DNA of 64,000 nt from Escherichia coli (GTDB lineage Bacteria > Pseudomonadota > Gammaproteobacteria > Enterobacterales > Enterobacteriaceae): assembly GCF_030013205.1 (NCBI RefSeq), contig NZ_CP122648.1. The stretch is one strand, 5' to 3'. Below, in pieces: positions 18,148-58,671 of the stretch. The notes beneath the pieces are model-generated. The model did no database searches, was not told the DNA's origin, and saw only the letters and a list, made by a program, of their open reading frames with translations. Both the position numbers and the translations under genes were made by a program. The stretch's first letter is position 1, and every line of letters begins with the position of its first letter.

Positions 18148-18268
18148 TTGACAATACCCGGAGCGATTCGCCCGCAGCCAATGCTGACTGCGGGCGAAAG
18201 TGTAAAGCAGGTGCCTTACTACTCTGACCTGACAACCGGATATGCGGGGATTACTCCCCGCACAACGG

Positions 18269-18421
18269 CTACTTCTTCGGTTCGTAAGCGAGAACAGCCT
18301 TAAACTCAATATTACGTTCCTTCACCGTAAACTCACACAGCGAGTCTCCGACCAGAAGCGTAAATCCCAGCACCGTTAAACACAGCACTATGACTGCCAC
18401 AAGGGCATATTTCGTCAGCAT
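18269..18421 (-). CDS. hokE: Hok-family type I toxin (HokE-like), copy 1
   Basis: 50-aa product [50 protein letters not shown]. Confidence 0.88.
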
Positions 18422-18566
18422 GTTTATATTGCCTCCATGCGAAGAAGGGACTACCATCCGAGTTGTTGAGGTTCGGAGTGGCAGCCCCAGGATTGATAGA
18501 AATATCTCCTGGGGCTTCATCTTTCCAGACCTCAGAGTTAACCTGAAACCGGAAAGCTTCAGGCAC
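18333..18566 (-). CDS. mok-like overlapping reading frame (modulator of killing), copy 1
   Basis: 77-codon [35 protein letters not shown]… starting upstream of hok and ending inside it in a different frame, as expected for mok. Confidence 0.5.
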
Positions 18567-18600
18567 CCGCTGTTATCTTACCCTTCCTTAGCAAAATAAC
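18530..18600 (+). ncRNA. candidate Sok antisense RNA, copy 1 (position approximate)
   Basis: Inferred from hok/sok architecture only: antisense to the mok translation-initiation region; no promoter or terminator mapped. Confidence 0.25.
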
Positions 18601-18771
18601 TGTTTATTTATACAGCAAGTCCTGTTTCGGACTTCTGTTGGCAACACTCGTTATTGCTCGTAAAACGAAATCGCCCGCAGCCATCACTGACCACGGGCGA
18701 AAGTGTAAAGCAGGTGCCTTACCACCCTGACCTGACAACCGGATATGCGGGGATTACTCCCCGCACAACGG

Positions 18772-18924
18772 CTACTTCTTCGGTTCGTAAGCGAGAACAG
18801 CCTTAAACTCAATATTACGTTCCTTCACCGTAAACTCACACAGCGAGTCTCCGACTAGAAGCGTAAATCCCAGTACCGTCAAACACAGCACTATGACTGC
18901 CACAAGGGCATATTTCGTCAGCAT
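18772..18924 (-). CDS. Hok-family type I toxin, copy 2 (identical protein)
   Basis: Same 50-aa Hok sequence; here the upstream mok frame is fused in frame, giving a 98-codon ORF 18772..19068. Confidence 0.8.
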
Positions 18925-19029
18925 GTTTATATTGCCTCCATGCGAAGAAGGGACTACCATCCAAATTGTCTGGTTTGGAGTGGCAGCCCCAGGGTTGATA
19001 GAAATATCTCCTGGGGCTTCATCTTTCCA

Positions 19030-19100
19030 GACCTCAGAGTTAACCTGAAACCGGAAAGCTTCAGGCACCCGCCGTTATCTTACCCTTCTTCAGCAAAATA
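19030..19100 (+). ncRNA. candidate Sok antisense RNA, copy 2 (position approximate)
   Basis: Inferred by analogy with copy 1. Confidence 0.2.
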
Positions 19101-19355
19101 GCTGTTTATTTATACAGTGAGTCCTGTTTCGGACTTCTCACTCCTCATTTGATCAACTGAAGCTGAACCCGTTTTTTTCTGCATGCCTCAATCGTCAAAA
19201 TTCTTCGCCACCAGTCCGCACTGCCATAACTTGTCATATTGCAAAATGTAGCCAATTTGCTTCAGTCACCATCATCAAAAAAAGAAACATTCCAGAACTT
19301 CCGCATCTCGCCCAGTCGCTCCCACTTCTATACTGAATAGAAAACGCCAACATAA

Positions 19356-31850: not shown

Positions 31851-33288
31851 GCCATTTCAGCGCCCGTTTTCGCTGGCAACCCGCCTGACCTTTTTTATCA
31901 GCCTGGCCACCATCGCGGCGTTTTTCGCCTTTGCCTGGATCATGATTCACTCGGTAAAAGTGCATTTTGCTGAGCAGGATATTAATGATTTAAAAGAGAT
32001 TAGCGCCACACTCAAGCGCGTTCTTAATCATCCCGAAGAGACACAAGCCCGACGCTTAATGACGCTGGAAGATATCGTCAGTGGTTATTCCAATGTGTTG
32101 ATTTCCCTGGCAGATAGCCAGGGTAAAACGGTGTATCACTCCCCCGGTGCGCCGGATATCCGCGAGTTTACGCGTGACGCCATACCCGATAAAGACACGC
32201 GGGGCGGCGAGGTGTATCTCCTTTCCGGCCCGACGATTATGATGCCGGGCCACGGTCACGGGCATATGGAACACAGCAACTGGCGGATGATTAACTTGCC
32301 GGTTGGCCCGTTGGTGGACGGCAAACCGATTTATACGCTCTACATCGCGCTTTCGATCGATTTTCATCTTCATTACATAAATGATTTGATGAATAAACTT
32401 ATTATGACCGCATCGATCATCAGCATCCTGATCGTCTTTATCGTGCTGTTGGCGGTACATAAAGGTCACGCACCGATCCGCAGCGTCAGCCGTCAAATCC
32501 AGAACATTACCTCGAAAGATCTCGACGTTCGCCTTGACCCGCAGACCGTGCCGATTGAGCTGGAACAGCTGGTACTGTCGTTCAACCATATGATCGAGCG
32601 TATTGAGGATGTCTTTACTCGCCAGTCCAATTTCTCAGCGGATATCGCTCACGAAATTCGTACACCAATTACGAATCTCATAACGCAAACCGAAATCGCC
32701 CTCAGCCAGTCACGCAGCCAGAAGGAGCTGGAAGATGTGCTCTACTCTAATCTCGAAGAGCTGACGCGAATGGCGAAAATGGTCAGCGATATGCTGTTTC
32801 TCGCCCAGGCCGATAACAACCAGCTAATCCCCGAAAAGAAAATGCTCAACCTGGCGGATGAAATCGGCAAAGTGTTCGATTTTTTCGAGGCGCTAGCGGA
32901 AGATCGCGGCGTGGAACTGCGGTTTGTTGGTGACGAGTGTCAGGTTGCGGGCGATCCGCTGATGCTGCGTCGGGCGTTAAGCAACCTGCTTTCGAACGCC
33001 CTGCGTTATACGCCGCCCGGAGAGGCGATTGTAGTGCGCTGCCAGACGGTCGATCACCAGGTGCAAGTTTCCGTCGAAAACCCCGGTACGCCCATTGCGC
33101 CCGAGCACTTACCGCGATTGTTTGACCGTTTCTACCGCGTTGACCCCTCCCGCCAGCGAAAAGGCGAAGGTAGCGGTATTGGGCTGGCGATAGTGAAATC
33201 GATTGTTGTCGCGCATAAAGGCACGGTTGCAGTAACGTCAGATGCTCGGGGGACAAGGTTTGTGATTATGCTGCCGGAGAGAGAGTGA
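31840..33288 (+). CDS. cusS: copper-sensing histidine kinase CusS
   Basis: Start chosen at [19 protein letters not shown] inside ORF 31828..33288, overlapping the cusR stop; HisKA/HATPase motifs. Confidence 0.93.
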
Positions 33289-33644
33289 TTATTAAGTTCA
33301 AATTCAGGGCGTGGTGCATCACCTCCTGGTATTGTTGATCAACAAATTAGAGAAAAACTTATTAAACATATGAAATATCGAAGGCTTTTATTTTTCAAAG
33401 TTTCACGAGATGTTTGTATATGAAACTTAGTTAAATCTGTGTTTCTTCCAATTGTAGATCACAATGCCCTTTCTAAATTTTCATCGTTATAAACAAGCCA
33501 TCTATCATATAAAGCAATGAATAATTTAATCGCGATTAATCATCATTAATTGTTATATTATTCACTCAATCTATTTATCAAGTGAATTTGATAAATTCCT
33601 AATTTAAAATATCCACTATTGAGCCAGTATTTAACAACGTTAAG

Positions 33645-33672
33645 ATGTGCAATGTGCAATGTGCAATGTGCA
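33645..33672. repeat. tandem heptanucleotide repeat (ATGTGCA)x4
   Basis: atgtgcaatgtgcaatgtgcaatgtgca read directly in the AT-rich region upstream of vgrG. Confidence 0.9.
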
Positions 33673-34038
33673 GATCATGTTATCAGGGTGGAGCGGTAGC
33701 ATATATTTCTTATGCAATCATTCATTTTAATAATGTTAATTGGATTATTTATTGCTGTGAATAAAAATATATTATGAATATTGGTTTAACTTTGCGTTTT
33801 TGTTACTCGTTGTGATATGCGTACCTGTCCTGAATAACGCCAAGAAACAAGAGGTTGAGCTTGTGATTATTTTTTTGACTGAACAGACACCCGTTTCTGT
33901 AAAGTAATATTTAAACAAAATTCTCACATAACCATAGCATTTTCTGTTCCTTCCCTAATAACGTCTGAAGTCGTCCCGCTTATCACATTATCCGCAGTTG
34001 TACGGTACGGATCATTATTCATTTTACTGGAGGTTGCT

Positions 34039-35925
34039 ATGTCAACCGGATTACGTTTCACACTGGAAGTGGACGGCCTGCCGCCGGATGCTTTTGCGGT
34101 GGTTTCCTTTCATCTGAACCAGTCACTCTCTTCGCTCTTTTCCCTCGATCTCTCCCTGGTCAGCCAGCAGTTTCTCTCCCTTGAATTTGCGCAGGTGCTG
34201 GACAAAATGGCCTACCTGACGATATGGCAGGGCGATGAAGTACAGCGCCGGGTGAAAGGCGTGGTGACCTGGTTTGAACTCGGGGAGAACGACAAAAACC
34301 AGATGCTGTACAGCATGAAGGTGCACCCGCCGCTGTGGCGTGCCGGTCTGCGCCAGAACTTCCGTATCTTCCAGAACGAGGACATCAAAAGCATCCTCGG
34401 CACGATGTTGCAGGAAAACGGGGTGACCGAATGGAGTCCGCTGTTCAGCGAGCCGCATCCTTCCCGTGAGTTTTGTGTCCAGTACGGTGAGACTGATTAC
34501 GATTTCCTGTGCCGGATGGCGGCGGAGGAAGGCATCTTCTTTTATGAGGAGCATGCTTACAAAAGTACCGACCAGAGCCTGGTGCTGTGCGACACAGTCC
34601 GCCATCTGCCCGAATCTTTTGAAATCCCATGGAACCCGAACACCCGTACCGAGGTGAGCACCCTCTGCATCAGCCAGTTCCGCTACAGCGCACAAATCCG
34701 CCCTTCTTCCGTGGTGACCAAAGACTACACCTTTAAACGCCCCGGCTGGGCCGGACGTTTTGAACAGGAAGGCCAGCACCAGGACTACCAGCGCACGCAG
34801 TATGAAGTGTATGACTACCCCGGACGTTTCAAGGGTGCCCACGGGCAGAACTTTGCCCGCTGGCAGATGGACGGCTGGCGAAACAATGCAGAAACCGCGC
34901 GGGGAATGAGTCGTTCGCCGGAGATATGGCCGGGACGACGAATTGTGCTGACGGGGCATCCGCAGGCGAACCTGAACCGGGAATGGCAGGTGGTGGCAAG
35001 TGAACTGCACGGCGAACAGCCACAGGCGGTGCCAGGACGGCAGGGAGCGGGGACGGCGCTGGAGAACCATTTTGCGGTGATCCCGGCAGACAGAACATGG
35101 CGACCACAGCCGTTGCTGAAACCGCTGGTCGACGGCCCGCAGAGCGCTGTCGTGACAGGACCGGCAGGCGAGGAAATCTTCTGCGACGAACATGGTCGCG
35201 TGCGGGTGAAGTTCAACTGGGACCGTTATAACCCGGCAGACCAAGACAGTTCGTGCTGGATCCGTGTGGCACAGGCGTGGGCAGGCACCGGTTTTGGCCA
35301 CCTGGCGATACCACGTGTGGGTCAGGAAGTCATTGTGGACTTCCTCAACGGCGATCCGGACCAGCCGATCATTATGGGGCGCACCTACCACCAGGAAAAC
35401 CGCCCCCCCGGCAGCCTGCCGGGAACAAAGACGCAGATGACCATCCGCTCCAAAACGTACATGGGCAGCGGATTTAATGAGCTGAAGTTTGATGATGCGA
35501 CAGGGAGAGAACAGGTCTACATCCACGCGCAGAAGAACATGGATACCGAAGTGCTCAACGACCGTACCACCACCGTAAAACACGATCACCGCGAAACCGT
35601 AAAAAATGACCAGACGGTCACGATCCAGGAAGGTAACCGCCTTCTTACGGTGGAAAAAGGCCACAAGATCACCGGAGTACTGAAAGGGTCTTTATCTGAG
35701 GATGTCTTTCAGGACAGAGGCACGATTGCCGGTTCGGTGCATGTTGACGCTGTAAACAATGGTGGCGAAGGCGACGGTATACAGGCTTATACGGCGATTA
35801 AGGAAATTTTGCTGGCCGTGGAGGAAAGCAAAATTGCGCTGACGCCGGATGGCATTCAGCTACAGGTCGGGGAATCGACGGTACCGGATCACAGGTGTCA
35901 GTCACACCGACGGGATCCGGCTTAA
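34039..35925 (+). CDS. vgrG: VgrG (Rhs-element Vgr protein / T6SS spike), 3' end replaced out of frame at a deletion junction near 35880
   Basis: 628-aa ORF with gp27/gp5-like VgrG sequence (…GRVRVKFNWDRYNPADQDSSCWIRVAQAWAG…IALTPDGIQLQVGESTV) ending in an unrelated 15-aa tail PDHRCQSHRRDPA. Confidence 0.8.
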   Translation: MSTGLRFTLEVDGLPPDAFAVVSFHLNQSLSSLFSLDLSLVSQQFLSLEFAQVLDKMAYLTIWQGDEVQRRVKGVVTWFELGENDKNQMLYSMKVHPPLWRAGLRQNFRIFQNEDIKSILGTMLQENGVTEWSPLFSEPHPSREFCVQYGETDYDFLCRMAAEEGIFFYEEHAYKSTDQSLVLCDTVRHLPESFEIPWNPNTRTEVSTLCISQFRYSAQIRPSSVVTKDYTFKRPGWAGRFEQEGQHQDYQRTQYEVYDYPGRFKGAHGQNFARWQMDGWRNNAETARGMSRSPEIWPGRRIVLTGHPQANLNREWQVVASELHGEQPQAVPGRQGAGTALENHFAVIPADRTWRPQPLLKPLVDGPQSAVVTGPAGEEIFCDEHGRVRVKFNWDRYNPADQDSSCWIRVAQAWAGTGFGHLAIPRVGQEVIVDFLNGDPDQPIIMGRTYHQENRPPGSLPGTKTQMTIRSKTYMGSGFNELKFDDATGREQVYIHAQKNMDTEVLNDRTTTVKHDHRETVKNDQTVTIQEGNRLLTVEKGHKITGVLKGSLSEDVFQDRGTIAGSVHVDAVNNGGEGDGIQAYTAIKEILLAVEESKIALTPDGIQLQVGESTVPDHRCQSHRRDPA

Positions 35926-38900
35926 ACTGACGTACCACGCCAGCGGCTACCTGAAAGCCATTCACCGCACGGATAACGGCATACAGACGCTGGCGACCTA
36001 CGAACAGGATGCGCGGGGGCGGCTGACAGAAGCGGATGCGCGGCTGGACTACCACCTGTTTTATGAGTACGACGCTGCGGACCGGATCATCCGCTGGTCC
36101 GATAACGACCAGACGTGGAGCCGTTTCACCTACGATGAACAGGGCCGGTGCGTGAATGTCACCGGGGCGGAGGGCTATTACAACGCCACGCTGGACTATG
36201 GTGACGGCTGCACCACCGTGACGGACGGCAAGGGCATTCACCGTTATTACTATGATCCTGACGGCAATATTCTGCGGGAAGCAGCGCCGGACGGCAGCAC
36301 CACCATGTATGAATGGGATGAATTCCATCACCTGCTGGCCCGTCACTCCCCTGCCGGGCGGGTGGAGAAATTTGAATACAACGCCGCACACGGTCAGTTA
36401 AGCCGTTACACGGCGGCAGACGGCGCGGAGTGGCAGTACCGCTATGATGAGCGCGGCCTGCTCAGCAACATCACCGACCCTGCCGGGCAGACGTGGACAC
36501 AGCAGTGTGATGAACGCGGCCTGCCGGTAAGTCTGGTGTCGCCACAGGGCGAAGAGACCCGGCTGGCATACACCGCTCAGGGGCTGCTGTCGGGAATATT
36601 CCGCCAGGATGAACGGCGTCTGGGCATAGAGTACGACCACCACAACCGGCCGGAAACACTCACCGACGTGATGGGCCGTGAACACCACACCGAATACAGC
36701 GGTCACGACCTGCCGGTGAAGATGCGCGGCCCCGGCGGTCAGTCAGTGCGGTTACAGTGGCAGCAGCACCATAAACTGAGCGGCATTGAACGTGCTGGAA
36801 CCGGCGCGGAAGGATTCCGCTACGACCGCCACGGCAACCTGCTGGCCTGGACGGACGGCAACGGCGTTGTCTGGACAATGGAATACGGCCCGTTTGATTT
36901 GCCGGTGGCGCGAACGGACGGTGAAGGCCACCGCTGGCAGTACCGCTACGATAAAGACACGCTGCAACTGACAGAAGTCATTAACCCGCAGGGTGAGTCA
37001 TATCTTTATGTTCTGGATAACTGCGGCCGGGTGACGGAAGAGCATGACTGGGGCGGCGTGGTCTGGCGTTACCGCTATGACGCCGATGGCCTGTGTACCG
37101 CCAGGGTCAACGGCCTGGAGGAAACCATCCTCTACAGCCGGGACGCCGCAGGCCGCCTGGCAGAAGTCATCACGCCGGAAGGCAAAACGCAGTATGCGTA
37201 TGACAAATCCGGCAGGCTTACGGGTATCTTCAGCCCGGACGGCACATCACAGCGCACCGGCTATGACGAACGCGGGCGGGTGAATGTCACCACTCAGGGC
37301 CGACGGGCCATTGAATACCACCACCCCGATGAACACACCGTCATCCGCTGTATCCTGCCACCGGAAGATGAACGCGACAGACACCCCGGTGAATCCCTGC
37401 TGAAAACCACGTACCGCTACAACGCCGCCGGAGAACTGACGGAGGTTATCCTGCCGGGGGATGAGACGCTGACGTTCAGCCGTGATGAGGCAGGACGTGA
37501 AGTGCTCCGGCACAGTAACCGGGGTTTTGCCTGTGAACAGGGCTGGAATGCAGCCGGCCAGTCTGTCAGCCAGCGCGCCGGATTTTTCCCGGAAGAAGCC
37601 ACATGGGGCGGGCTGGTTCCGTCACTGGCGCGGGAATACCGTTATGACAGCGCGGGCAATGTGTCGGCTGTCACCAGCCGGGAAGATTACGGACGGGAAA
37701 CACGGCGGGAATACCGGCTGGACCGGAACGGCCAGGTCACGGCGGTGACAGCCTCAGGCACCGGGCTGGGCTATGGCGAAGGCGATGAGTCCTATGGCTA
37801 TGACAGCTGCGGCTACCTGAAGGCGCAGTCTGCGGGCTGGCACCGGATAAGTGAAGAGACTGACCAGTATGCCGGAGGCCACCGGCTGAAACAGGCCGGA
37901 AACACGCAGTATGACTATGACGCCGCAGGCCGGATGGTCAGCCGCACCAGACACCGTGACGGCTATCGCCCGGAAACAGAGCGGTTCCGGTGGGACAGCC
38001 GTGACCAGCTGACCGGGTATTGCAGCGCACAGGGTGAGCAGTGGGAATACCGCCACGACGCCAGCGGCAGACGAACAGAGAAACGCTGCGACCGGAAGAA
38101 AATCCGCTTCACGTATCTGTGGGACGGCGACAGTATTGCGGAAATCCGGGAATACCGCGATGATAAACTGTACAGCGTACGGCACCTGGTGTTTAACGGC
38201 TTTGAGCTGATAAGCCAGCAGTTCAGCCGGGTACGGCAGGCGCATCCGTCGGTGGCCCCGCAGTGGGTGACACGGACGAATCATGCGGTGAGCGACCTGA
38301 CGGGCCGTCCGCTGATGCTCTTTAACAGTGAAGGTAAAACCGTCTGGCGACCGGGACAGACCAGCCTGTGGGGGCTGGCACTCAGCCTGCCCGCAGACAC
38401 CGGCTACCCGGACCCGCGCGGGGAACTGGACCCGGAAGCCGACCCCGGCCTGCTGTATGCGGGACAGTGGCAGGATGCAGAATCCGGGCTGTGCTATAAC
38501 CGGTTCCGGTATTACGAGCCGGAAACCGGGATGTACCTGGTGAGTGATCCGCTGGGGTTGCTGGGGGGTGAGCAGACTTACCGGTATGTGCCAAATCCGT
38601 GTGGGTGGGTTGATCCGCTGGGATTGGCTGCAAGTTCTAAAATCAGCAGTTTGATGGACTATATTGGCGATGGTCGTCGTGTTAGTGGGCATACGGGTTT
38701 CCTGGATGGGGTTCGTTTATCACGTAGTCAAATAAACAATATTGCTAAAGAAATGGAGAAGCTAGGAATTAAAGTAATAAGGAAAGCAGATAAATATTTG
38801 CCACCAAATGCTAGGGCAGCTTTTGATTATGGCCTTCGCAATATTTATCTTAGGAAAAATGCCACCTTATATGAGGTGTATCATGAAGTGATTCATGCTA

Positions 38901-39079
38901 AGCAATTTGCGAAAATTGGACGAGAAGCATACGAAGCACTAGGACGTTTATCTAGGGAGGAACACGTTCTAAATGAAATATTAAAAAGTAAAAATTTATT
39001 CAATGAAGCGGAAATAGCTCATGCCATAAAATATGTTGAGGGATTGAGAGAAAAATTCATGATGGGACTAATAAATTGA
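35849..39079 (+). CDS. Rhs protein remnant: YD-repeat core (5'-truncated, no PAAR/N-terminal region) plus a 150-aa variable C-terminal toxin domain
   Basis: 1076-aa ORF rich in YD repeats, core-end motif YVPNPCGWVDPLGL at about 38585-38626, then a low-GC C-terminal tail containing HEVIH; the only ATG is a fortuitous one inside vgrG-derived sequence. Confidence 0.8.
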   Translation: MAFSYRSGNRRYRITGVSHTDGIRLKLTYHASGYLKAIHRTDNGIQTLATYEQDARGRLTEADARLDYHLFYEYDAADRIIRWSDNDQTWSRFTYDEQGRCVNVTGAEGYYNATLDYGDGCTTVTDGKGIHRYYYDPDGNILREAAPDGSTTMYEWDEFHHLLARHSPAGRVEKFEYNAAHGQLSRYTAADGAEWQYRYDERGLLSNITDPAGQTWTQQCDERGLPVSLVSPQGEETRLAYTAQGLLSGIFRQDERRLGIEYDHHNRPETLTDVMGREHHTEYSGHDLPVKMRGPGGQSVRLQWQQHHKLSGIERAGTGAEGFRYDRHGNLLAWTDGNGVVWTMEYGPFDLPVARTDGEGHRWQYRYDKDTLQLTEVINPQGESYLYVLDNCGRVTEEHDWGGVVWRYRYDADGLCTARVNGLEETILYSRDAAGRLAEVITPEGKTQYAYDKSGRLTGIFSPDGTSQRTGYDERGRVNVTTQGRRAIEYHHPDEHTVIRCILPPEDERDRHPGESLLKTTYRYNAAGELTEVILPGDETLTFSRDEAGREVLRHSNRGFACEQGWNAAGQSVSQRAGFFPEEATWGGLVPSLAREYRYDSAGNVSAVTSREDYGRETRREYRLDRNGQVTAVTASGTGLGYGEGDESYGYDSCGYLKAQSAGWHRISEETDQYAGGHRLKQAGNTQYDYDAAGRMVSRTRHRDGYRPETERFRWDSRDQLTGYCSAQGEQWEYRHDASGRRTEKRCDRKKIRFTYLWDGDSIAEIREYRDDKLYSVRHLVFNGFELISQQFSRVRQAHPSVAPQWVTRTNHAVSDLTGRPLMLFNSEGKTVWRPGQTSLWGLALSLPADTGYPDPRGELDPEADPGLLYAGQWQDAESGLCYNRFRYYEPETGMYLVSDPLGLLGGEQTYRYVPNPCGWVDPLGLAASSKISSLMDYIGDGRRVSGHTGFLDGVRLSRSQINNIAKEMEKLGIKVIRKADKYLPPNARAAFDYGLRNIYLRKNATLYEVYHEVIHAKQFAKIGREAYEALGRLSREEHVLNEILKSKNLFNEAEIAHAIKYVEGLREKFMMGLIN

Positions 39080-39327
39080 TAAAACATAACAAAATAACTA
39101 TCGAAATGGCTCTTGACTTGGCTCGGCGTGAGTTAGAGTTAAGGGAAATTCCTTATATTAAAAATAGTCTACATGCCAATTACAGCTATAAATCTATTAG
39201 TATTGGTTCTAAGCAAGGTTGGTTAATTTCAGCGAAATTAAAAGTCCCTGAAACTTTTGAGCCTGATATGATATTTATTGAGATATCTGACCCAGAAGGT
39301 TTTATTAATATTCCTGATGTATTATAA
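39076..39327 (+). CDS. candidate Rhs immunity protein (small acidic protein encoded directly after the rhs CT)
   Basis: 83-codon ORF overlapping the rhs stop (TTGA); low-GC like the CT domain; start ambiguous (TTG at 39076 or ATG at 39106). Confidence 0.55.
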   Translation: MIKHNKITIEMALDLARRELELREIPYIKNSLHANYSYKSISIGSKQGWLISAKLKVPETFEPDMIFIEISDPEGFINIPDVL

Positions 39328-39441
39328 ACTACGTTAGAGGTTTTGTTATAAGGTAATCGGTTTCTTTACAGACCGCTGGCGTACATCGCACAGAGGCTGC
39401 TAACAGGGATATTCCTGCCTGGATGAACGCAAGGCAAGATC

Positions 39442-39753
39442 ATGGAAATAGTGATATACATCACTATTTCCATCCTGATTTTAGCTATCGCATTAATAAA
39501 ACAGCGGATGTTAGCCAATATCGAAACCAGTAACCCGTATCACGCCCAGTACATCCTGCGCCGCCGCGATGATTACCTGGTGCTGTTCGACCGTGATGCC
39601 CTGAGCTGCCGCTTCTTTTATGACGCCTTTCCGGGAATGCGTCTGCGCCACCAGGTGACCGGCGATACCGACGATGACCGCCTGGCACACAGCCCCGCAG
39701 ACCGGATGTATACAGGGAAAGATCATCAGAAGTACACTTTTTGTACTAAATAA
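39442..39753 (+). CDS. hypothetical small protein, possibly a chimeric or orphan fragment
   Basis: 103-codon ORF: hydrophobic AT-rich N-terminus joined to a GC-rich 3' portion (39530-39720) that looks displaced from another gene. Confidence 0.3.
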   Translation: MEIVIYITISILILAIALIKQRMLANIETSNPYHAQYILRRRDDYLVLFDRDALSCRFFYDAFPGMRLRHQVTGDTDDDRLAHSPADRMYTGKDHQKYTFCTK

Positions 39754-39779
39754 TTCACATTTTATGTTTAAAAATTGAG

Positions 39780-41060
39780 ATATTCCTCATTACCTGAAGC
39801 TGTTTTTTATTGCTTATACATGATCAAATACTCCTTACATAATTAAGGAGAACAAAATGGAACTTAAAAAATTGATGGAACATATTTCTATTATTCCCGA
39901 TTACAGACAAGCCTGGAAAGTGGAACATAAATTATCGGATATTCTATTGTTGACTATTTGTGCCGTTATTTCTGGTGCGGAAGATTGGGAAGATATAGAG
40001 GATTTTGGGGAAACACATCTCGATTTTTTGAAGCAATATGGTGATTTTGAAAATGGTATTCCTGTTCACGATACCATTGCCAGAGTTGTATCCTGTATCA
40101 GTCCTGCAAAATTTCACGAGTGCTTTATTAACTGGATGCGTGACTGCCATTCTTCAGATGATAAAGACGTCATTGCAATTGATGGAAAAACGCTCCGGCA
40201 CTCTTATGACAAGAGTCGCCGCAGGGGAGCGATTCATGTCATTAGTGCGTTCTCAACAATGCACAGTCTGGTCATCGGACAGATCAGGACGGATGAGAAA
40301 TCCAATGAGATTACAGCTATCCCAGAACTTCTTAACATGCTGGATATTAAAGGAAAAATCATCACAACTGATGCGATGGGTTGCCAGAAAGATATTGCAG
40401 AGAAGATACAAAAACAGGGAGGTGATTATTTATTCGCGGTAAAAGGAAACCAGGGGCGGCTAAATAAAGCCTTCGAGGAAAAATTTCCGCTGAAAGAATT
40501 AAATAATCCAGAGCATGACAGTTACGCAATGAGTGAAAAGAGTCACGGCAGAGAAGAAATCCGTCTTCACATTGTTTGCGATGTCCCTGATGAACTTATT
40601 GATTTCACGTTTGAATGGAAAGGTCTGAAGAAATTATGCGTGGCAGTCTCCTTTCGGTCAATAATAGCAGAACAAAAGAAAGAGCCAGAAATGACGGTCA
40701 GATATTATATTAGTTCTGCTGATTTAACCGCAGAGAAGTTCGCCACAGCAATCCGAAACCACTGGCACGTGGAGAATAAGCTGCACTGGCGTCTGGACGT
40801 GGTAATGAATGAAGACGACTGCAAAATAAGAAGAGGAAATGCAGCAGAATTATTTTCAGGGATACGGCACATCGCTATTAATATTTTGACGAATGATAAG
40901 GTATTCAAGGCAGGGTTAAGACGTAAGATGCGAAAAGCAGCCATGGACAGAAACTATCTGGCGTCAGTCCTTGCGGGGAGCGGGCTTTCGTAATCTTGCC
41001 CTGCCTGCTCACCTCCTCCAGGCACTTCCACTACATGATGACCTGCTCGGTGCCACCGCT
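39780..41060 (+). mobile_element. H-repeat (ISAs1-family) insertion element; boundaries approximate
   Basis: Contains the 378-aa H-repeat-associated transposase ORF typical of Rhs-linked H-rpt elements; terminal repeats not resolved. Confidence 0.5.
39857..40993 (+). CDS. H-repeat-associated protein / ISAs1-family transposase
   Basis: 378-aa [54 protein letters not shown]… recognised as the YhhI/YdcC/YbfD H-rpt protein family. Confidence 0.85.
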
Positions 41061-41263
41061 CCTTTTCACTATGACGTTAACCTCCCTGTCCCAGGACACC
41101 ATGCTTTTGTCTACATTCTACGCAAACGGCAACTTTTATAACCAGTGTAAAAATAACGTGCCGCAATAGTCATACCTATTAATGGTAAAAAGCTGTCACA
41201 ATTCATAAAAAACCTTAATATACGCCACCCTAAACATAACCAGCGTTAATGTAAGGTTTTTGT

Positions 41264-43501
41264 GTGGACTGGCTTCTTGATGTTTTTGCTACCTGGCTCT
41301 ACGGCTTAAAAGTAATCGCGATAACGTTAGCGGTCATCATGTTCATCAGCGGGCTGGACGATTTTTTTATTGATGTCGTCTACTGGGTACGCCGCATTAA
41401 ACGCAAGTTGAGTGTTTATCGCCGCTACCCGCGAATGAGTTACCGCGAACTGTATAAACCAGATGAAAAACCGTTAGCGATTATGGTTCCGGCGTGGAAT
41501 GAAACGGGCGTCATCGGCAATATGGCCGAGCTGGCGGCGACCACGCTCGACTATGAAAACTATCATATCTTTGTTGGCACCTACCCCAACGACCCCGATA
41601 CTCAGCGTGATGTTGACGAAGTGTGCGCTCGCTTCCCGAATGTGCATAAGGTAGTCTGCGCGCGACCTGGCCCCACCAGCAAAGCCGACTGCCTGAACAA
41701 CGTGCTGGACGCCATCACCCAGTTTGAGCGTAGCGCCAATTTCGCTTTTGCTGGTTTTATTCTGCATGACGCCGAAGATGTGATTTCACCGATGGAATTG
41801 CGTCTGTTCAACTATCTGGTCGAGCGTAAAGATCTGATTCAGATCCCGGTGTATCCGTTCGAACGCGAATGGACGCACTTCACCAGCATGACTTACATTG
41901 ATGAGTTTTCAGAACTGCATGGCAAAGATGTTCCGGTGCGTGAAGCCCTCGCCGGACAAGTGCCCAGCGCAGGCGTCGGTACCTGTTTCAGCCGCCGCGC
42001 CGTGACCGCACTGTTAGCTGACGGTGACGGTATTGCTTTCGACGTGCAGAGTCTTACTGAAGATTACGACATTGGTTTCCGCCTGAAAGAAAAAGGTATG
42101 ACGGAAATTTTTGTCCGTTTTCCGGTGGTGGACGAAGCCAAAGAACGCGAGCAGCGTAAATTTTTACAGCACGCGCGGACGTCAAACATGATCTGCGTGC
42201 GCGAATATTTCCCCGATACCTTTTCGACTGCGGTTCGACAAAAATCTCGCTGGATCATCGGCATTGTTTTCCAGGGCTTTAAAACCCACAAATGGACCTC
42301 CAGCCTGACGCTGAACTACTTTCTCTGGCGCGACCGCAAAGGGGCAATCAGTAACTTTGTCAGCTTCCTCGCGATGCTGGTGATGATCCAGCTTTTGCTG
42401 TTACTGGCGTATGAAAGTTTGTGGCCCGATGCCTGGCATTTCCTTTCTATTTTCAGCGGCAGCGCATGGTTAATGACCCTGCTGTGGCTAAACTTTGGTT
42501 TAATGGTTAACCGCATCGTGCAGCGGGTGATTTTTGTCACTGGCTACTACGGTCTGACGCAGGGGCTGCTATCTGTCCTGCGTCTTTTCTGGGGCAACCT
42601 GATTAACTTCATGGCCAACTGGCGCGCGTTAAAACAGGTACTTCAACACGGCGATCCACGTCGCGTCGCGTGGGATAAAACAACGCATGACTTCCCCAGC
42701 GTGACTGGCGATACCCGCTCGTTGCGTCCGTTAGGTCAAATCCTGCTGGAAAATCAGGTCATCACTGAAGAACAACTCGATACAGCACTGCGTAATCGCG
42801 TCGAAGGTCTACGCCTGGGCGGTTCAATGCTGATGCAGGGGCTGATTAGCGCCGAACAGCTGGCACAGGCGCTGGCAGAGCAAAACAGCGTGGCGTGGGA
42901 GTCGATCGACGCCTGGCAGATCCCTTCATCACTGATTGCCGAAATGCCGGCCTCCGTGGCGCTGCATTATGCAGTGCTGCCGCTGCGTCTGGAAAATGAT
43001 GAGTTAATTGTCGGCAGTGAAGATGGTATTGACCCGGTTTCGCTGGCAGCCCTGACGCGTAAAGTCGGACGCAAAGTGCGTTACGTCATTGTTCTGCGGG
43101 GACAAATTGTCACGGGGTTACGCCACTGGTATGCGCGCCGACGCGGTCACGATCCGCGGGCAATGTTGTACAATGCGGTTCAGCATCAGTGGCTCACGGA
43201 ACAGCAGGCCGGTGAAATCTGGCGGCAATATGTGCCGCATCAGTTCCTGTTCGCCGAAATACTGACCACGCTCGGTCATATTAATCGTTCAGCAATTAAC
43301 GTGTTGTTATTGCGCCATGAACGTAGTTCTCTGCCGCTCGGCAAGTTTTTGGTCACCGAAGGCGTTATCAGCCAGGAAACGTTGGATCGCGTCCTGACAA
43401 TTCAACGCGAATTACAAGTTTCGATGCAATCACTATTACTCAAAGCAGGTTTAAACACAGAACAGGTTGCGCAACTGGAGTCCGAAAATGAAGGAGAATA
43501 A
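41264..43501 (+). CDS. nfrB: NfrB (phage N4 adsorption protein B; family-2 glycosyltransferase with c-di-GMP-binding C-terminal domain)
   Basis: 745-aa ORF with GTG start, MDWLLDVFATWLYGLKVIAITLAVIMF…. Confidence 0.93.
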   Translation: MDWLLDVFATWLYGLKVIAITLAVIMFISGLDDFFIDVVYWVRRIKRKLSVYRRYPRMSYRELYKPDEKPLAIMVPAWNETGVIGNMAELAATTLDYENYHIFVGTYPNDPDTQRDVDEVCARFPNVHKVVCARPGPTSKADCLNNVLDAITQFERSANFAFAGFILHDAEDVISPMELRLFNYLVERKDLIQIPVYPFEREWTHFTSMTYIDEFSELHGKDVPVREALAGQVPSAGVGTCFSRRAVTALLADGDGIAFDVQSLTEDYDIGFRLKEKGMTEIFVRFPVVDEAKEREQRKFLQHARTSNMICVREYFPDTFSTAVRQKSRWIIGIVFQGFKTHKWTSSLTLNYFLWRDRKGAISNFVSFLAMLVMIQLLLLLAYESLWPDAWHFLSIFSGSAWLMTLLWLNFGLMVNRIVQRVIFVTGYYGLTQGLLSVLRLFWGNLINFMANWRALKQVLQHGDPRRVAWDKTTHDFPSVTGDTRSLRPLGQILLENQVITEEQLDTALRNRVEGLRLGGSMLMQGLISAEQLAQALAEQNSVAWESIDAWQIPSSLIAEMPASVALHYAVLPLRLENDELIVGSEDGIDPVSLAALTRKVGRKVRYVIVLRGQIVTGLRHWYARRRGHDPRAMLYNAVQHQWLTEQQAGEIWRQYVPHQFLFAEILTTLGHINRSAINVLLLRHERSSLPLGKFLVTEGVISQETLDRVLTIQRELQVSMQSLLLKAGLNTEQVAQLESENEGE

Positions 43502-53452: not shown

Positions 53453-54018
53453 GCGTTAGTTTCTCCACAACCAGAAGCAATCGACGCCACGACGCCCGGA
53501 GCTGCACACTCGCGGGCGTCATTACTTTCTGAAATGCAAAAAATTTTGTAGACAAGTGCTGCATGCTCCTGCAGCTTCGAAATTGAGAGATACAGCTCGT
53601 CGTTAATTGCTGTCTTCTCATGCGGTTCCACTACACCGTCTTCGATTGCTGAACGAATCTGTTTTGAATAACTGCCGATCTGTTCAATGACTTCCAGCAG
53701 ACGCTGGTTAATATCGGCGTTGTCCACATCCTCGACGTCAGGAAGAGACACAAAGACGCCATTTGCAGACTGCGCCACAGCATCAGCAATGAAGTGAGTG
53801 CCACCAGCACGCTGTAAAACCATTGCCCATCCCAGCGGGAAAATCTGATCGCCATCTGCACGAAGGCGGTTGAATAAAGCGTTTTCTGTTACATCGAGCC
53901 AGTCAGCCGCTTCAGCGTAACCACCCGGCAACGCCGCGATAGTTTTTCTGACAGCTTTCACGTACCACTCAGGCTGTTTTTCTATTTTCCAGTGATGCTT
54001 ACCCACGATTAGCCTCAT
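53449..54018 (-). CDS. phage regulatory protein in the cII position (CII-like, function not verified)
   Basis: 189-codon ORF directly downstream of the cro-like gene on the same strand; assignment by gene order, family not confirmed. Confidence 0.5.
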
Positions 54019-54049
54019 CGTTCTGTGGTTAAAAATTGAAAGTGTTCTG

Positions 54050-54250
54050 CTAATCTTTCGGATAGATATCCGGTCTTAAGTCAGATTTCGTAATTGCACC
54101 TGACGTGCATTGCTCAAGTTTTTTAGCCAGCACAAAACTGGCTTTTTTATAGCCATTGAAAACCAGCCGTAAGTAGCCAGGTGTTGAGCCAACTTTTCCG
54201 GCCAACTCGCCCTGCTGTTCTTTGGTTAAAGAGTCCCAATACGCTTTCAT
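54050..54250 (-). CDS. Cro-like HTH repressor
   Basis: 66-aa product MKAYWDSLTKEQQGELAGKVGSTPGYLRLVFNGYKKASF… with GGAGG 10 nt upstream; divergent from cI across a palindromic operator region. Confidence 0.7.
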   Translation of the reverse strand: MKAYWDSLTKEQQGELAGKVGSTPGYLRLVFNGYKKASFVLAKKLEQCTSGAITKSDLRPDIYPKD

Positions 54251-54340
54251 ACAATATGTACCTCCGATGTACATATCACATGATTAAAATGAACCTTCAA
54301 GATACTTGTACCTTAACGGTACAAGGGTTTTAATTTCGTT
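54251..54340. promoter_or_regulatory. OR-like operator/promoter region between the cro-like gene and cI
   Basis: Two palindromes sharing a TGTACC half-site: atatgtac-ctccgat-gtacatat (54254-54276) and cttgtacc-ttaac-ggtacaag (54306-54326). Confidence 0.65.
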
Positions 54341-55015
54341 ATGAAAACAATCCATGACATCCGGCGGTCTAACGCCAGAAAACTGAGAGATGGTGTTGGC
54401 GGGAATTCTTCCTTTGCCACTATGATTGATCGCGAGCCAACCCAGACCAGCAGGTTTATGGGAGATGGTGCTACTAAAAATATCGGTGACAGCATGGCAC
54501 GACACATCGAAAAATGTTTCGACCTGCCTGTCGGATGGCTCGATCAAGAACACCAGACAACGAACATCACAAAAAAACCTGATGTTTCAATCACTAATAA
54601 ACAAATCACATTAGTCCCTGTCATATCATGGGTACAGGCCGGAGCATGGAAAGAAGTTGGATATTCTGAGGTTGATTTGAGCACAGCAGAAACGTATCCC
54701 TGCCCTGTACCCTGTGGGGAAATGACTTATATCCTGCGGGTGATAGGTGATTCAATGATTGATGAGTACCGCCCGGGAGACATGATTTTTGTCGATCCTG
54801 AAGTACCTGCCTGCCACGGTGACGACGTTATTGCATTGATGCACGATACAGGTGAAACCACCTTCAAAAGGTTGATAGAAGATGGGACACAGCGTTATCT
54901 CAAAGCGTTAAACCCAAACTGGCCTGAGCCTTACATTAAGATCAACGGTAATTGCTCTATAATTGGAACTGTGATTTTCTCAGGAAAACCAAGAAGATAC
55001 AAAATCAAAGCCTAA
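54341..55015 (+). CDS. CI-like phage repressor (N-terminal HTH, C-terminal LexA/S24-type autopeptidase)
   Basis: 224-aa ORF with the S24 serine motif (VIGDSM) and a downstream lysine (TFKRL). Confidence 0.85.
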   Translation: MKTIHDIRRSNARKLRDGVGGNSSFATMIDREPTQTSRFMGDGATKNIGDSMARHIEKCFDLPVGWLDQEHQTTNITKKPDVSITNKQITLVPVISWVQAGAWKEVGYSEVDLSTAETYPCPVPCGEMTYILRVIGDSMIDEYRPGDMIFVDPEVPACHGDDVIALMHDTGETTFKRLIEDGTQRYLKALNPNWPEPYIKINGNCSIIGTVIFSGKPRRYKIKA

Positions 55016-55026
55016 TCAATGTTTAT

Positions 55027-55050
55027 GAACCTGCTTCGGCAGGTTTTTTT
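55027..55050 (+). terminator. intrinsic terminator after cI
   Basis: gaacctgc-ttcg-gcaggtt followed by ttttttt. Confidence 0.75.
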
Positions 55051-55054
55051 ATAC

Positions 55055-55095
55055 TTGACAATGTACCTTTGAGATACATAATGTACCCAAGAGAA
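55055..55095 (+). promoter_or_regulatory. pL-like sigma70 promoter with OL-like operator half-sites
   Basis: TTGACA (55055-55060), 16 bp, CATAAT (55077-55082); two AATGTACC motifs overlap it, matching the TGTACC half-site of the OR palindromes. Confidence 0.55.
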
Positions 55096-55229
55096 ACAAC
55101 AAACAGGCAGGACCCCCACGAAGTATCCGCCTGGGGCATATGAAGTTCAGGATGATTCGTTAGCAACAAAAAAGCGCCCTACAGGACGCTTAGCTCTTTA
55201 ACAATCTGGATATCCACAACAGTAGTAAT

Positions 55230-55721
55230 CTACAGATTGCCGTTAAGTTTTCTGGACAACTCCTCAATGGATGGAGGCGATACGTAATCCGGATTTTTAT
55301 TCATCAGAAACTTATTTTCACAGTGGAGGCACCTGCTTTTATGAAAAAGCTCATCTTCGCTAACCGGGAATGGTTGAAGTATCGATACTATCTTTTGTCC
55401 AAAACATTTTGGGCAAAGATGCATGGTTATGCTGCCACCGTTCACGATTACCTCCTTCGAGTATACAAAAGTACCCGACTCAAGTTGGTTAAGGATATAG
55501 CCTTCCGTCTGAGCCTCAAAGTTTTCGAATTCTGCAATTTTAGCTTTGAGAGAAGCATTTATTTCTTGATAAGAGCCCACCAGTTCAACGAGAGACACGC
55601 ATTCGCGCTGAATAGACGCAAGCTTTGAGTTCAGCTCACCAATAGCCGCATTTACTTCAGCTTGAGTTTTTGCCTCGTTCATTAGTTTTGCAATCTGGGC
55701 TGTTTCACGAATAGCCGTCAT
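55230..55721 (-). CDS. prophage moron: coiled-coil protein with C-terminal C4 zinc ribbon, function unknown
   Basis: 163 aa from MTAIRETAQIAKLMNEAKTQAEVNAAIGELNSKL…; CPKCF…(18 aa)…CLHCE; AT-rich; start uncertain (alternative GTG at about 55754). Confidence 0.55.
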   Translation of the reverse strand: MTAIRETAQIAKLMNEAKTQAEVNAAIGELNSKLASIQRECVSLVELVGSYQEINASLKAKIAEFENFEAQTEGYILNQLESGTFVYSKEVIVNGGSITMHLCPKCFGQKIVSILQPFPVSEDELFHKSRCLHCENKFLMNKNPDYVSPPSIEELSRKLNGNL

Positions 55722-55789
55722 TGCTGCCGTTAATTCAGCGATCACATTGAATACTCTTATTGTTGTTGGGGATATCCAGATTAACCGAA

Positions 55790-56214
55790 TCCTTGTTGTT
55801 GGGGAATAACCAGGTCCACCTCGCCTGATGTGGCTAAAAGCAGGCACATAACAGCTAAGTATTTTCAACCAGAGAGAATCCTTAGCGTTGTGGTGAATGC
55901 GGCTCAGCGCACGCGGGTTAAGGTTGAGGCTGACAGTCGACCTTCTGTGGATACCCACCCGCCTGGTGTGCAACCTTCGCCAGGCACCGGGAGGCACCCG
56001 GCACCACAACTTTATGCTGTGTGTAGTCCTGGCGGTACCAGCTTGTACCCTTGCTTCCGGCTGGTACCGTCCTTTTTACAAAACAGAGAAGAGCATCACC
56101 GGACGACGGGCTCATAACCCAATCCATCCGGGCGGCGGCCACCACAGGTGTTCTTCTCTGTTTTGTGGAGAAACTAATCGGCCTTGCAGGGTCGATATGA
56201 TGAGGAGCAGCAAA
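55790..56214 (+). other. GC-rich, highly structured non-coding region (candidate structured RNA or recombination remnant)
   Basis: Nested inverted repeats: gcctgg/ccaggc, ccggg/cccgg, ggtaccagc/gctggtacc (9 bp), and caaaacagagaaga…tcttctctgttttg (about 15-17 bp); ORFs here lack plausible starts. Confidence 0.4.
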
Positions 56215-56577
56215 ATGGCTAGCGAACGCAGTACTGATGTGCAGGCATTTATCGGGGAGCTGGACGGCGGCGTATTTGAAACCAAAATCGGCGCAGTTCT
56301 CAGTGAAGTCGCTTCCGGTGTGATGAACACGAAAACCAAAGGTAAGGTCTCACTCAACCTGGAAATCGAACCATTTGATGAGAACCGTGTGAAAATCAAA
56401 CACAAACTCTCATATATTCGCCCGACTAACCGCGGGAAAATTTCCGAAGAAGACACCACCGAAACGCCGATGTATGTCAATCGCGGTGGTCGCCTGACTA
56501 TTCTGCAGGAAGACCAGGGACAATTACTGACTCTTGCCGGTGAACCTGACGGAAAACTCCGCGCAGCAGGTCGTTAA
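56215..56577 (+). CDS. yfdP: YfdP-like prophage protein (CPS-53 homologue as I recall)
   Basis: 120-aa product MASERSTDVQAFIGELDGGVFETKIGAVLSEV… with GAGGAG 9 nt upstream of the ATG. Confidence 0.7.
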   Translation: MASERSTDVQAFIGELDGGVFETKIGAVLSEVASGVMNTKTKGKVSLNLEIEPFDENRVKIKHKLSYIRPTNRGKISEEDTTETPMYVNRGGRLTILQEDQGQLLTLAGEPDGKLRAAGR

Positions 56578-56642
56578 TATCGTTCGTAATAAACTGATTA
56601 TTTATCTCATCACTGAATATCTTTATATAGTGAGGACTTATT

Positions 56643-57467
56643 ATGTCTCAGAACTTAGACGCAACCGCAATTAATCAAATCCATGCCCTTATTTCTGCTC
56701 AGGGTGTTAATGAAATTATCAGTAAGATTGGTGCCGATGCTGTGGCATTGCCTGAGAATTTCCGCATTCATGATCTGGAAAAATTTAATTTAAATCGCTT
56801 CCGTTTCCGTGGTGCACTTTCCACTGCCAGCATCGATGATTTTACCCGTTATTCTAAAGATCTTGCAGATGAAGGCACCCGCTGCTTTATCGATGCCGAT
56901 AATATGCGTGCCGTCAGTGTGCTTAACCTGGGTACTATTGATGAGCCAGGTCACGCAGATAACACTGCCACTCTCAAACTGAAAAAGACAGCACCGTTCT
57001 CTGCTCTGTTGTCTGTTAACGGCGAGCGTAACTCCCAGAAGTCACTGGCAGAATGGATCGAAGACTGGGCCGACTACCTTGTGGGCTTTGATGCTAATGG
57101 TGACGCCATTCAAGCAACAAAAGCGGCTGCGGCAGTCCGTAAAATCACGATTGAAGCAAACCAGACCGCTGATTTTGAAGATAATGACTTCAGCGGCAAA
57201 CGCTCCCTGATGGAGTCTGTCGAAGCGAAGACCAAAGACATTATGCCAGTGGCATTTGAATTTAAATGCGTTCCGTTTGAAGGTCTGAAAGAACGTCCGT
57301 TTAAATTACGCCTCAGCATTATCACTGGCGATCGTCCTGTACTGGTTCTGCGCATTATTCAGCTGGAAGCGGTGCAGGAAGAAATGGCTAACGAATTTCG
57401 TGATCTGCTTGTTGAGAAATTCAAAGACAGCAAAGTAGAAACCTTTATTGGTACTTTCACCGCCTGA
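56643..57467 (+). CDS. yfdQ: YfdQ-like prophage protein (unknown function)
   Basis: 274-aa [33 protein letters not shown]…. Confidence 0.7.
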
Positions 57468-57594
57468 TTTCATTACTGCAAATGCCCCTGCGGGGGCATT
57501 TATGGAAACGTAATTAACTCAATAATCACCGGATGGTGAGGGCTTCCTTTTACCAGAATTCAGCGCGGTGCAGTGCATATACGTGGAGAACAAA

Positions 57595-58656: not shown

Positions 58657-58671
58657 CTGATTGAATTGTAA

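Follow-up and report, generated by a model that had tools for sequence, protein, structure and literature searches.

We are confident that the extra DNA between cusS and nfrB in the window (the whole 64,000-nucleotide stretch of Escherichia coli contig NZ_CP122648.1 that was analysed) is an orphan T6SS effector island of E. coli, namely rhs locus 4 of clade IV, with an apparent match to the VgrG_O1 / Rhs-CT1 islands, which was disarmed by a lineage-specific deletion. The locus is already known, since Table 3 of Jackson et al. 2009 (BMC Genomics 10:584, PMC2935791) lists a clade IV rhs locus, number 4, at nfrB/cusS, and the only feature specific to this pig-associated strain is a 2229-bp deletion. 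The finding has little weight beyond correct annotation: the decayed vgrG and rhs genes of this copy should be left out of any tally of functional T6SS effectors, and it would be wrong to read the island, which belongs to a well-studied class of interbacterial toxin islands and is a frequent presence/absence polymorphism of E. coli, as a strain-specific acquisition.

Limits, composition and known relatives of the island

In K-12 MG1655 the cusS and nfrB genes are adjacent with a 149-bp spacer, just as the first-pass annotation had stated. In the window the last nucleotide of cusS is 33288 and the first of nfrB is 41264, and all the parts which that annotation had placed between them were present. 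The span that it had assigned to the island (33289-41263) does contain extra DNA, but the true limits defined by homology are 33269-41121. On the left, homology to K-12 and E. whittamii ends at about 33268, within the last cusS codons, and on the right it restarts at 41122, 142 bp 5' of nfrB. BLAST and direct alignment against K-12 revealed that 7.85 kb (33269-41121) stands in place of 24 bp of the empty site, the last cusS codons included. The gene order is a 750-bp leader, vgrG, an N-terminally truncated rhs, a putative immunity gene, rhs-core snippets and ISEc1, with the following features:

33269..41121, no strand: whole island, absent from the empty cusS-nfrB site (alignments against K-12, E. 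whittamii, S88 and the GTDB E. coli representative)
33269..33288, + strand: island-derived cusS 3' end (comparison with ancestral CusS)
33289..34038, + strand: AT-rich non-coding leader 5' of vgrG, 750 bp, 31.7% GC (no annotated gene, no Rfam match)
34039..35925, + strand: vgrG, T6SS spike (TIGR03361, E = 1.8e-188; comparison with the 633-aa intact VgrG)
35881..35883, no strand: breakpoint of the 2229-bp deletion, with GTA as a 3-bp microhomology (aligned with L002, the intact allele, the window lacks 6071-8299)
35884..38626, + strand: rhs core remnant, Rhs residues 556 to ~1470 (RHS/YD repeats, Rhs_assc_core)
38627..39079, + strand: AT-rich C-terminal toxin tip, predicted Tox-MPTase4 zinc metallopeptidase (Pfam PF15640, E = 5.8e-32, full model)
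39076..39327, + strand: putative immunity gene (RefSeq start 39118, 69 aa, WP_001299578.1)
39370..39483, + strand: rhs-core-like snippet (60 bp, 39370-39429) and ISAs1-family relic (55 bp, 39429-39483), from identity to the core and to L013
39442..39753, + strand: 103-aa chimeric ORF with a 180-bp dissociated rhs-core fragment in its middle
39713..41003, + strand: ISEc1 (H-repeat, ISAs1 family), 1291 bp, with limits common to three other copies
41004..41121, no strand: right-end segment of the island, 118 bp, also present in strains 550 and SW071620, which have an island of the alternative type

The CusS protein encoded here has 482 aa and ends in IMLPERE (...VIMLPERE), as compared with 480 aa and the end ITLPA in ancestral CusS (...VITLPA in K-12). 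The altered 3' end was also found in strain 550, which has the alternative island, and the C-terminal peptide is variable among strains (A to V in S88). The sharp GC shifts that had been reported at the boundaries and inside the island were borne out by the GC profile, which gave 52-54% for the flanks, 31.7% for the leader, 57% for vgrG, 61.6% for the rhs core, 36.6% for the toxin tip, 31.3% for the immunity gene and 40.2% for ISEc1, the whole window having 51%. The leader is presumed to have a regulatory role; an Rfam scan of 33000-41500 at E ≤ 1 yielded no match, and promoter and terminator sites were no more frequent in the leader than in shuffled sequence. A search for direct repeats at the ends of the island and of ISEc1 gave none that were convincing, and we therefore claim no integration mechanism.

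The vgrG gene lies directly 5' of rhs, whose core, with YD repeats and Rhs_assc_core, terminates in DPLGL-(18)-DPLGL and is followed by the AT-rich tip, so that the earlier assignment to the vgr-linked Rhs elements was sound. The HExxH motif of the predicted metallopeptidase is HEVIH at residue 1012. Further downstream, the 60-bp snippet is 80.6% identical to the rhs core at 36555-36615, and the relic, a left end from a divergent member of the ISAs1 family, is 81.8% identical to L013 at 38163-38217. The small ORF at 39442-39753 had rightly been called chimeric: its residues 31-90 come from the rhs-core fragment at 39531-39710, which has 91.7% identity with the intact allele's core and is annotated as a pseudogene fragment in RefSeq (39532-39711). 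This ORF had no NCBIfam match and is probably not a gene. The H-repeat element was identified by the NF033564 match of its transposase (39857-40993, E = 4e-125), in agreement with the ISAs1 family proposed at first, and by its 1291-bp limits. It has imperfect terminal inverted repeats (CAGGGAAAGAT... and CAGGGCAAGAT...), and no target-site duplication was found at its ends, the flanks ...GGATGTATA and CCTGCTCAC... being unlike. In strain 550 the matching right flank stands 2.4 kb away from its ISEc1, which suggests a rearrangement adjacent to the IS.

Classical K-12 Rhs elements (RhsA-E), known from the Hill laboratory, are built of a GC-rich core, an AT-rich extension, a downstream ORF, partial core repeats and H-rpt/ISEc1. 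The window island shares this composite structure. However, it has a contiguous vgrG and occupies a position at which K-12 has no island, and it belongs to clade IV, whereas the K-12 elements belong to clade I (Jackson et al. 2009, PMC2935791). With rhs locus 4 it has in common the position, the contiguous vgr, the GC-rich core, the AT-rich tip and the downstream core fragment. Both tip displacement and a dissociated core fragment downstream were presented for locus 4 in Fig. 5 of the same paper, the displacement occurring in other strains, e.g., SE11; the 5' deletion of the window is undescribed there, and the paper is older than the PAAR/Eag delivery model.

Judged by domain content rather than by direct sequence comparison, the locus seems to correspond to the island that later T6SS papers call VgrG_O1 / Rhs-MPTase4 (Rhs-CT1). 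This literature (Ma et al. 2017, as cited in PMC6730261, PMC6099711 and bioRxiv 2024.03.05.583533) reports T6SS-dependent antibacterial activity of Rhs-CT1 (MPTase4) and describes VgrG_O1-eagR-rhs islands in which the tip is MPTase4 and the immunity gene is cti1. The vgrG-eagR-PAAR-Rhs-MPTase4-immunity architecture of the VgrG_O1 island with Rhs-CT1/CTI1 is also that of the intact allele, which resembles the class I prePAAR Rhs effectors with Eag (DUF1795) chaperones in having prePAAR_I, PAAR, the Rhs cage and an upstream DcrB/DUF1795 gene. These delivery features are all deleted in the window. Its locus can be likened by domains to Rhs-CT1 of STEC004, but cannot act as such an effector because eagR and the PAAR part are missing.

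Distribution of the island and of the empty site

Among 5426 complete E. coli genomes, assigned at a threshold of 80% coverage, the empty site was found in 2326, the left junction of the island in 2438 and the right junction in 2479 (about 45%). Approximately 660 genomes matched neither the empty site nor the junctions of the window island, and at least some of these have the same outer ends with another array of cassettes between them. Collinearity of the empty site extends over K-12 (phylogroup A), S88 and ST131 (B2), the GTDB E. coli representative and the sister species E. whittamii, and these genomes share the same native cusS 3' end and 149-bp spacer. Because of this collinearity, the alignments indicate that the empty site is ancestral and the island derived. 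The idea of an insertion into conserved core genome was thus upheld by the empty state at the same site in K-12, B2 strains and E. whittamii, and the island genes are not the ancestral arrangement at this position.

The opposite direction of change, in which E. coli started out with the island and it was later deleted from K-12-type genomes, would accord with its presence in some 45% of the complete genomes and in distant lineages including O157:H7, SE11 and O139:H1. Nevertheless, we consider this highly improbable, since deletion would need to re-create the exact empty-site sequence independently, and a single collinear empty site with the native cusS 3' end and 149-bp spacer extends across E. 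whittamii, B2, K-12 and the GTDB representative. The foreign composition of the island (leader 32% GC, core 62%, whole window 51%) also speaks against ancestral presence, as does the occurrence of E. albertii rhs genes at positions 1, 5 and 6 only (Jackson et al. 2009, PMC2935791). The island would rather have entered the 149-bp spacer a single time, in some E. coli ancestor, and have since become a common presence/absence polymorphism. As about 660 genomes fit neither state, we infer the single insertion instead of observing it, and do so from the shared ends, not from a phylogeny.

Two further readings, which even taken jointly strike us as unlikely, are that cusS-nfrB is a fixed docking site for unrelated polymorphic-toxin/immunity arrays, or that the O139:H1 lineage was disarmed with retention of immunity. 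For a docking site, the conserved outer ends would be formed by the changed 3' end of cusS on the left and the 118-bp segment on the right. If true, this would imply an unrecognised cassette-exchange mechanism.

The 2229-bp deletion and its consequences

Alignment to the intact allele showed what the deletion takes out: the 18 codons at the end of vgrG, the gene for the chaperone Eag (DcrB), and codons 1-555 of rhs, which encode prePAAR, PAAR and DUF6531. Consistently, the prePAAR_I motif, PAAR and DUF6531 were matched in the intact allele only and had no match in the window copy, and the DcrB/DUF1795 (Eag) gene that lies between vgrG and rhs in L002 and SE11 is absent from the window. The first-pass annotation had recognised an rhs remnant, and the first 555 codons of rhs are indeed gone; it had overlooked the cause, a lineage-specific deletion that also clips vgrG and removes eag. 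The VgrG protein retains native residues 1-615, followed by a 13-aa frameshifted tail in place of the final 18 residues, and over its 5' 1.5 kb the vgrG gene has 92% identity with that of the aspV T6SS cluster in SE11. In RefSeq the rhs gene is annotated as a pseudogene without an N-terminus.

As a single piece the deletion junction occurs in only 13 genomes, all of them porcine ETEC/O139:H1 and nearly identical to one another; the window itself differs from the near-identical genome ETEC4067 by 2 SNPs in 64 kb. An assembly error is unlikely because 13 independent complete genomes carry the deletion, and its junction is a clean clonal marker for work on porcine oedema disease and ETEC O139:H1. 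vgrG codon 615 is joined out of frame to rhs codon 556, which rules out an in-frame VgrG-Rhs fusion protein. Descent of the remnant from an SE11-like ancestor with two rhs genes is less parsimonious, given that alignment of the window with the single-rhs allele needs just one clean gap.

Four products are encoded by the intact form: VgrG, the chaperone Eag/DcrB, a prePAAR-PAAR-Rhs protein tipped with Tox-MPTase4, and a putative immunity protein. From its domain architecture and the published work on this effector class, its working can be pictured as follows: the VgrG spike would be capped by the PAAR domain, the N-terminal transmembrane helices would be shielded by Eag, and the toxin would be held inside the Rhs cage and released by self-cleavage at DPxGL. 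On firing of the T6SS the toxin would be received by neighbouring bacteria, while sister cells would be protected by the immunity protein. An illegitimate deletion in the porcine ETEC/O139:H1 clone has removed the chaperone gene together with the whole delivery module, leaving a pseudogene whose toxin can no longer be loaded or fired and an intact immunity gene, which may still guard against relatives firing the same toxin.

Decay of the aspV T6SS cluster and retention of the putative immunity gene

The aspV T6SS cluster of ETEC4067, which was the cluster examined, lacks tssM, tssA, vasI, vgrG and one hcp, and it has a truncated clpV and an internal stop in tagH. In SE11 the aspV cluster is intact. 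The aspV rhs of the porcine O139:H1 clone is likewise 5'-truncated. With its T6SS core decaying in parallel, the O139:H1 lineage seems to have given up the use of its aspV T6SS.

It could be argued that the locus has kept its activity as a T6SS weapon, the truncated Rhs being delivered via a free PAAR protein or another T6SS, as the toxin tip, self-cleavage motif and immunity gene are intact, VgrG retains 615 of 633 residues and, the scan having covered the ETEC4067 aspV cluster, a second, intact cluster is possible. We find this hardly credible in view of the deletion of the prePAAR, the transmembrane region, PAAR, DUF6531, the first RHS repeats and the Eag chaperone gene. The junction is out of frame, the sole in-frame ATG for the remnant (35849) has no Shine-Dalgarno sequence 5' of it, rhs is a pseudogene in RefSeq and the aspV T6SS lacks tssM and tssA. 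The locus is best regarded as a non-deliverable remnant, because the PAAR part and the chaperone gene were removed and the aspV cluster of ETEC4067 is without tssM and tssA.

The immunity role of the ORF at 39076..39327 is putative, proposed from its position directly 3' of rhs, its conservation and the Rhs-CT1/CTI1 literature; the protein had no Pfam or NCBIfam match, and a second possible start, the TTG at 39076, shares nucleotides with the stop codon of rhs. It is possible, although somewhat doubtful, that the remnant is kept for this gene, as an orphan immunity locus against E. coli firing Rhs-MPTase4. The ORF is intact and the same protein accession (WP_001299578.1) is annotated in ETEC4067, MS14384 and SE11; encounters are plausible, the identical type of toxin tip with its immunity gene being found in 1163 of the 5426 complete genomes, and retained orphan immunity genes are known at E. 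coli T6SS loci. However, retention may just mean that the deletion is recent, its 13 carriers being nearly identical. This reading complements the explanation of the locus as a disarmed relic and is no true competitor to it.

The O139:H1 clone may have undergone a coordinated loss of T6SS weapons with its immunity genes retained, which would suggest selection for losing the weapon while keeping the toxin tips and immunity genes. Three separate deletions belong to that reading, affecting the present island, the aspV rhs, and tssM and tssA of the core cluster.

An insertion at the nfrB/cusS position

The window differed from the chromosome of the porcine strain ETEC4067 (NZ_CP122685.1, 3602474-3666473) by 2 SNPs in 64 kb, and its genes are ordered as ent/fep, hokE, ybdK to pheP, cusABFC, cusRS, the island, nfrBA, ybcH, envY, ompT, a prophage remnant at tRNA-Arg and the sfm fimbriae. 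The first-pass annotation had described cusS and nfrB as adjacent in K-12. This was indeed the case in MG1655, where a 149-bp spacer lies between them, whereas the window has the end of cusS at 33288 and the start of nfrB at 41264. The homology between the window and K-12 ended at about 33268 and restarted at 41122, which places the extra DNA at 33269-41121 (7.85 kb). The island has replaced 24 bp of the ancestral site, including the last cusS codons, which are now encoded by its left end (33269-33288). The resulting CusS has 482 aa and ends in ...VIMLPERE, in comparison to ...VITLPA in K-12 and 480 aa (ITLPA) at empty sites. No direct repeats were found at the island ends, and we claim no integration mechanism. 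The collinear empty site was common to the B2 strains S88 and ST131, the GTDB E. coli representative and the sister species E. whittamii. This implies that the empty state is ancestral and that the island is an insertion into the conserved core genome, as had been proposed; where the island genes could have appeared as the ancestral arrangement, the reference genomes carry the empty site instead.

Parts of the island, with GC content (flanks 52-54%)
33289-34038: leader, 750 bp between cusS and vgrG; 31.7% GC
34039-35925: vgrG (TIGR03361, E = 1.8e-188); 57% GC
to 39079: rhs reading frame with RHS/YD repeats, Rhs_assc_core and then full-length Tox-MPTase4 (E = 5.8e-32) with HEVIH; core 61.6% GC, toxin tip 36.6% GC
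39076/39118-39327: putative immunity ORF, 69- to 83-aa; 31.3% GC
103-aa ORF: its middle is a 180-bp rhs-core fragment
39713-41003: ISEc1 (ISAs1-family), 1291 bp, transposase 39857-40993; 40.2% GC

All the components named from the sequence alone (leader, vgrG, rhs with a toxin/immunity module, chimeric ORF and ISAs1 H-repeat) were thus found between cusS and nfrB, and the sharp GC switches noticed there were reproduced by the values computed for each part. In the rhs ORF, which has 1076 aa, the motif DPLGL-(18)-DPLGL was located at residues 900 and 922, and a profile search found no family match for the 69- to 83-aa ORF at 39076/39118-39327.

The position of the island, its architecture and the way it evolves are already described in the literature. 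Jackson et al. (2009, PMC2935791) recorded eleven rhs positions in E. coli, one of them being "locus 4, 591800, nfrB/cusS"; according to them, the only clade IV rhs is found there, and their Fig. 5 uses this locus as an example of C-terminal tip displacement. In SE11 the Rhs is full-length and AHH-tipped; behind it we observed a displaced fragment with an MPTase4 tip, then the same 69-aa ORF, the core fragment and ISEc1, an arrangement that exactly matches the tip-displacement picture of that study (PMC2935791). The initial observation is confirmed and its interpretation supported, the feature being a known one that has decayed in the strain of the window. The 2229-bp deletion described below and its clonal spread are the only strain-specific details.

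Decay of the delivery module

In the intact allele of strain MS14384, vgrG encodes 633 aa and is followed by a DcrB-related gene of 153 aa (Pfam DcrB, E = 1.7e-27), then by rhs with 1620 aa, the 69-aa ORF, the core fragment and lastly ISEc1. A class I prePAAR motif, a PAAR motif and DUF6531 all fall within the N-terminal 560 residues of the Rhs of this allele. When the window was aligned with this locus (L002), a single gap was revealed, corresponding to the loss of 2229 bp (L002 6071-8299) with a 3-bp microhomology, GTA, at the junction. As a consequence of this deletion, the Eag/DcrB chaperone gene is lost; VgrG retains native residues 1-615, followed by a 13-residue frameshifted tail in place of its last 18 residues, and of Rhs only residues 556-1620 remain, the junction being out of frame. 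The sole in-frame upstream ATG for the rhs remnant, at 35849, is not preceded by a ribosome-binding site, and RefSeq annotates rhs in the window as a pseudogene lacking the N-terminus. A 406-bp junction probe gave a single-piece match in only 13 genomes, all of them porcine ETEC or O139:H1, and three further genomes carried distinct, smaller deletions at the same place. In the leader, the alignment of 33289-34038 with MS14384 (L002 3490-4225) contained 14 gap positions, which account for the vgrG start being 14 bp further downstream in ETEC4067 (4240) than in MS14384 (4226) on the locus scale.

Which domains are encoded, what has been deleted and how the island is distributed among genomes are results of this analysis; the mechanism we infer from the architecture of the island and from the literature on such effectors. 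Where the island is intact, the PAAR domain would be seated on the VgrG spike, and Eag would steady the N-terminal transmembrane helices of Rhs. The toxin could be held in the Rhs shell and freed by a cut at DPxGL, T6SS contraction would drive it into adjacent cells, and the small downstream protein would shield kin. Reviews attribute to Rhs-CT1 (MPTase4) of E. coli STEC004 a T6SS-dependent antibacterial activity and state that this effector is required for intestinal colonisation, and a preprint (bioRxiv 2024.03.05.583533) reports VgrG_O1-eagR-rhs islands that combine an MPTase4 tip with the immunity gene cti1. The absence of the delivery module in the strain of the window makes the locus a disarmed relic. 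At the same time, the intact putative immunity gene may plausibly protect its carrier against attackers using this common toxin.

The first-pass annotation had also raised the question of T6SS core genes. None of these were present within the 64-kb window; in ETEC4067 a T6SS cluster is located outside it, at tRNA-Asp (aspV; L008 17215-36114, chromosome 4007215-4026114), and is decayed. It keeps eight tss genes (tssB, C, E, F, G, J, K and L) and one hcp, but tagH has an internal stop, a truncated clpV is fused to a VasL fragment, and vasI, tssA, tssM, the second hcp and vgrG are missing. The rhs of this cluster is 5'-truncated and adjoins an ISAs1 pseudogene, mirroring the deletion in the window. 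The aspV cluster of SE11 is intact and has every gene that is damaged or missing in ETEC4067. The island vgrG was 92% identical to the vgrG of the SE11 cluster over the first 1.5 kb, a similarity consistent with the aspV cluster being the cognate firing apparatus of the island.

Site states among E. coli genomes

The distribution of the island was assessed with probes run against 5426 complete E. coli genomes.

Genomes matched at >= 80% coverage
Empty-site probe: 2326
Left island junction: 2438
Right island junction (ISEc1 / nfrB upstream): 2479
MPTase4 tip and immunity gene of the window: 1152 (1163 with any match)

The carriers include O157:H7, SE11 and numerous clinical isolates. Since the island supplies the end of cusS, about 45% of E. 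coli genomes have a CusS with an altered C-terminal tail. Approximately 660 genomes matched neither the empty site nor the island at 80% coverage. The two of these that we inspected, strains 550 and SW071620, retained both a cusS end of the island type and the right segment of 118 bp (41004-41121). They represent a third site state (L014 3372-14000 in strain 550, and L015 in SW071620), in which an unrelated array lies inside the outer ends of the island. This array comprises an HNH/EndoVII toxin-2 fragment, two WD40/BNR-like proteins, PAAR-like and SUKH-3 proteins, two ISAs1 copies and several hypothetical genes; vgrG and rhs are absent from it in both strains.

ISEc1, adjoining debris and flanking genes

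The limits of ISEc1 (39713-41003) were set by three other copies; its terminal repeats are imperfect, and no target-site duplication was found at its flanks in the window. The sequence directly adjoining the IS in the window is situated, in strain 550, 2.4 kb from that strain's own ISEc1, which suggests that the right end was shaped by an IS-adjacent rearrangement. To the left of the element, 60 bp (39370-39429) are rhs-core-like (80.6% identity) and are directly followed by 55 bp (39429-39483) representing a left-end relic of a divergent ISAs1-family element (81.8% identity to the SE11 aspV locus, L013 38163-38217). The island thus contains two rhs fragments, each abutting an H-repeat left end. 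Positions 39442-39473, within the ISAs1-end relic and where the 103-aa chimeric ORF begins, form a perfect inverted repeat of 14 nt around a 4-nt loop (ATGGAAATAGTGAT ATAT ATCACTATTTCCAT).

Elsewhere in the window, the prophage remnant (about 51600-58700) adjoins tRNA-Arg at the same position as DLP12 of K-12. It carries a truncated integrase besides tail-fibre-assembly fragments, ymfL/T/K and yfdP/Q, and immediately upstream of it are ompT and an alpha/beta hydrolase gene. The hokE toxin locus is a tandem duplicate (18168-18636 and 18671-19138) of units of about 470 bp that are 95% identical, both annotated as intact; two copies are present in ST131 and one in S88.
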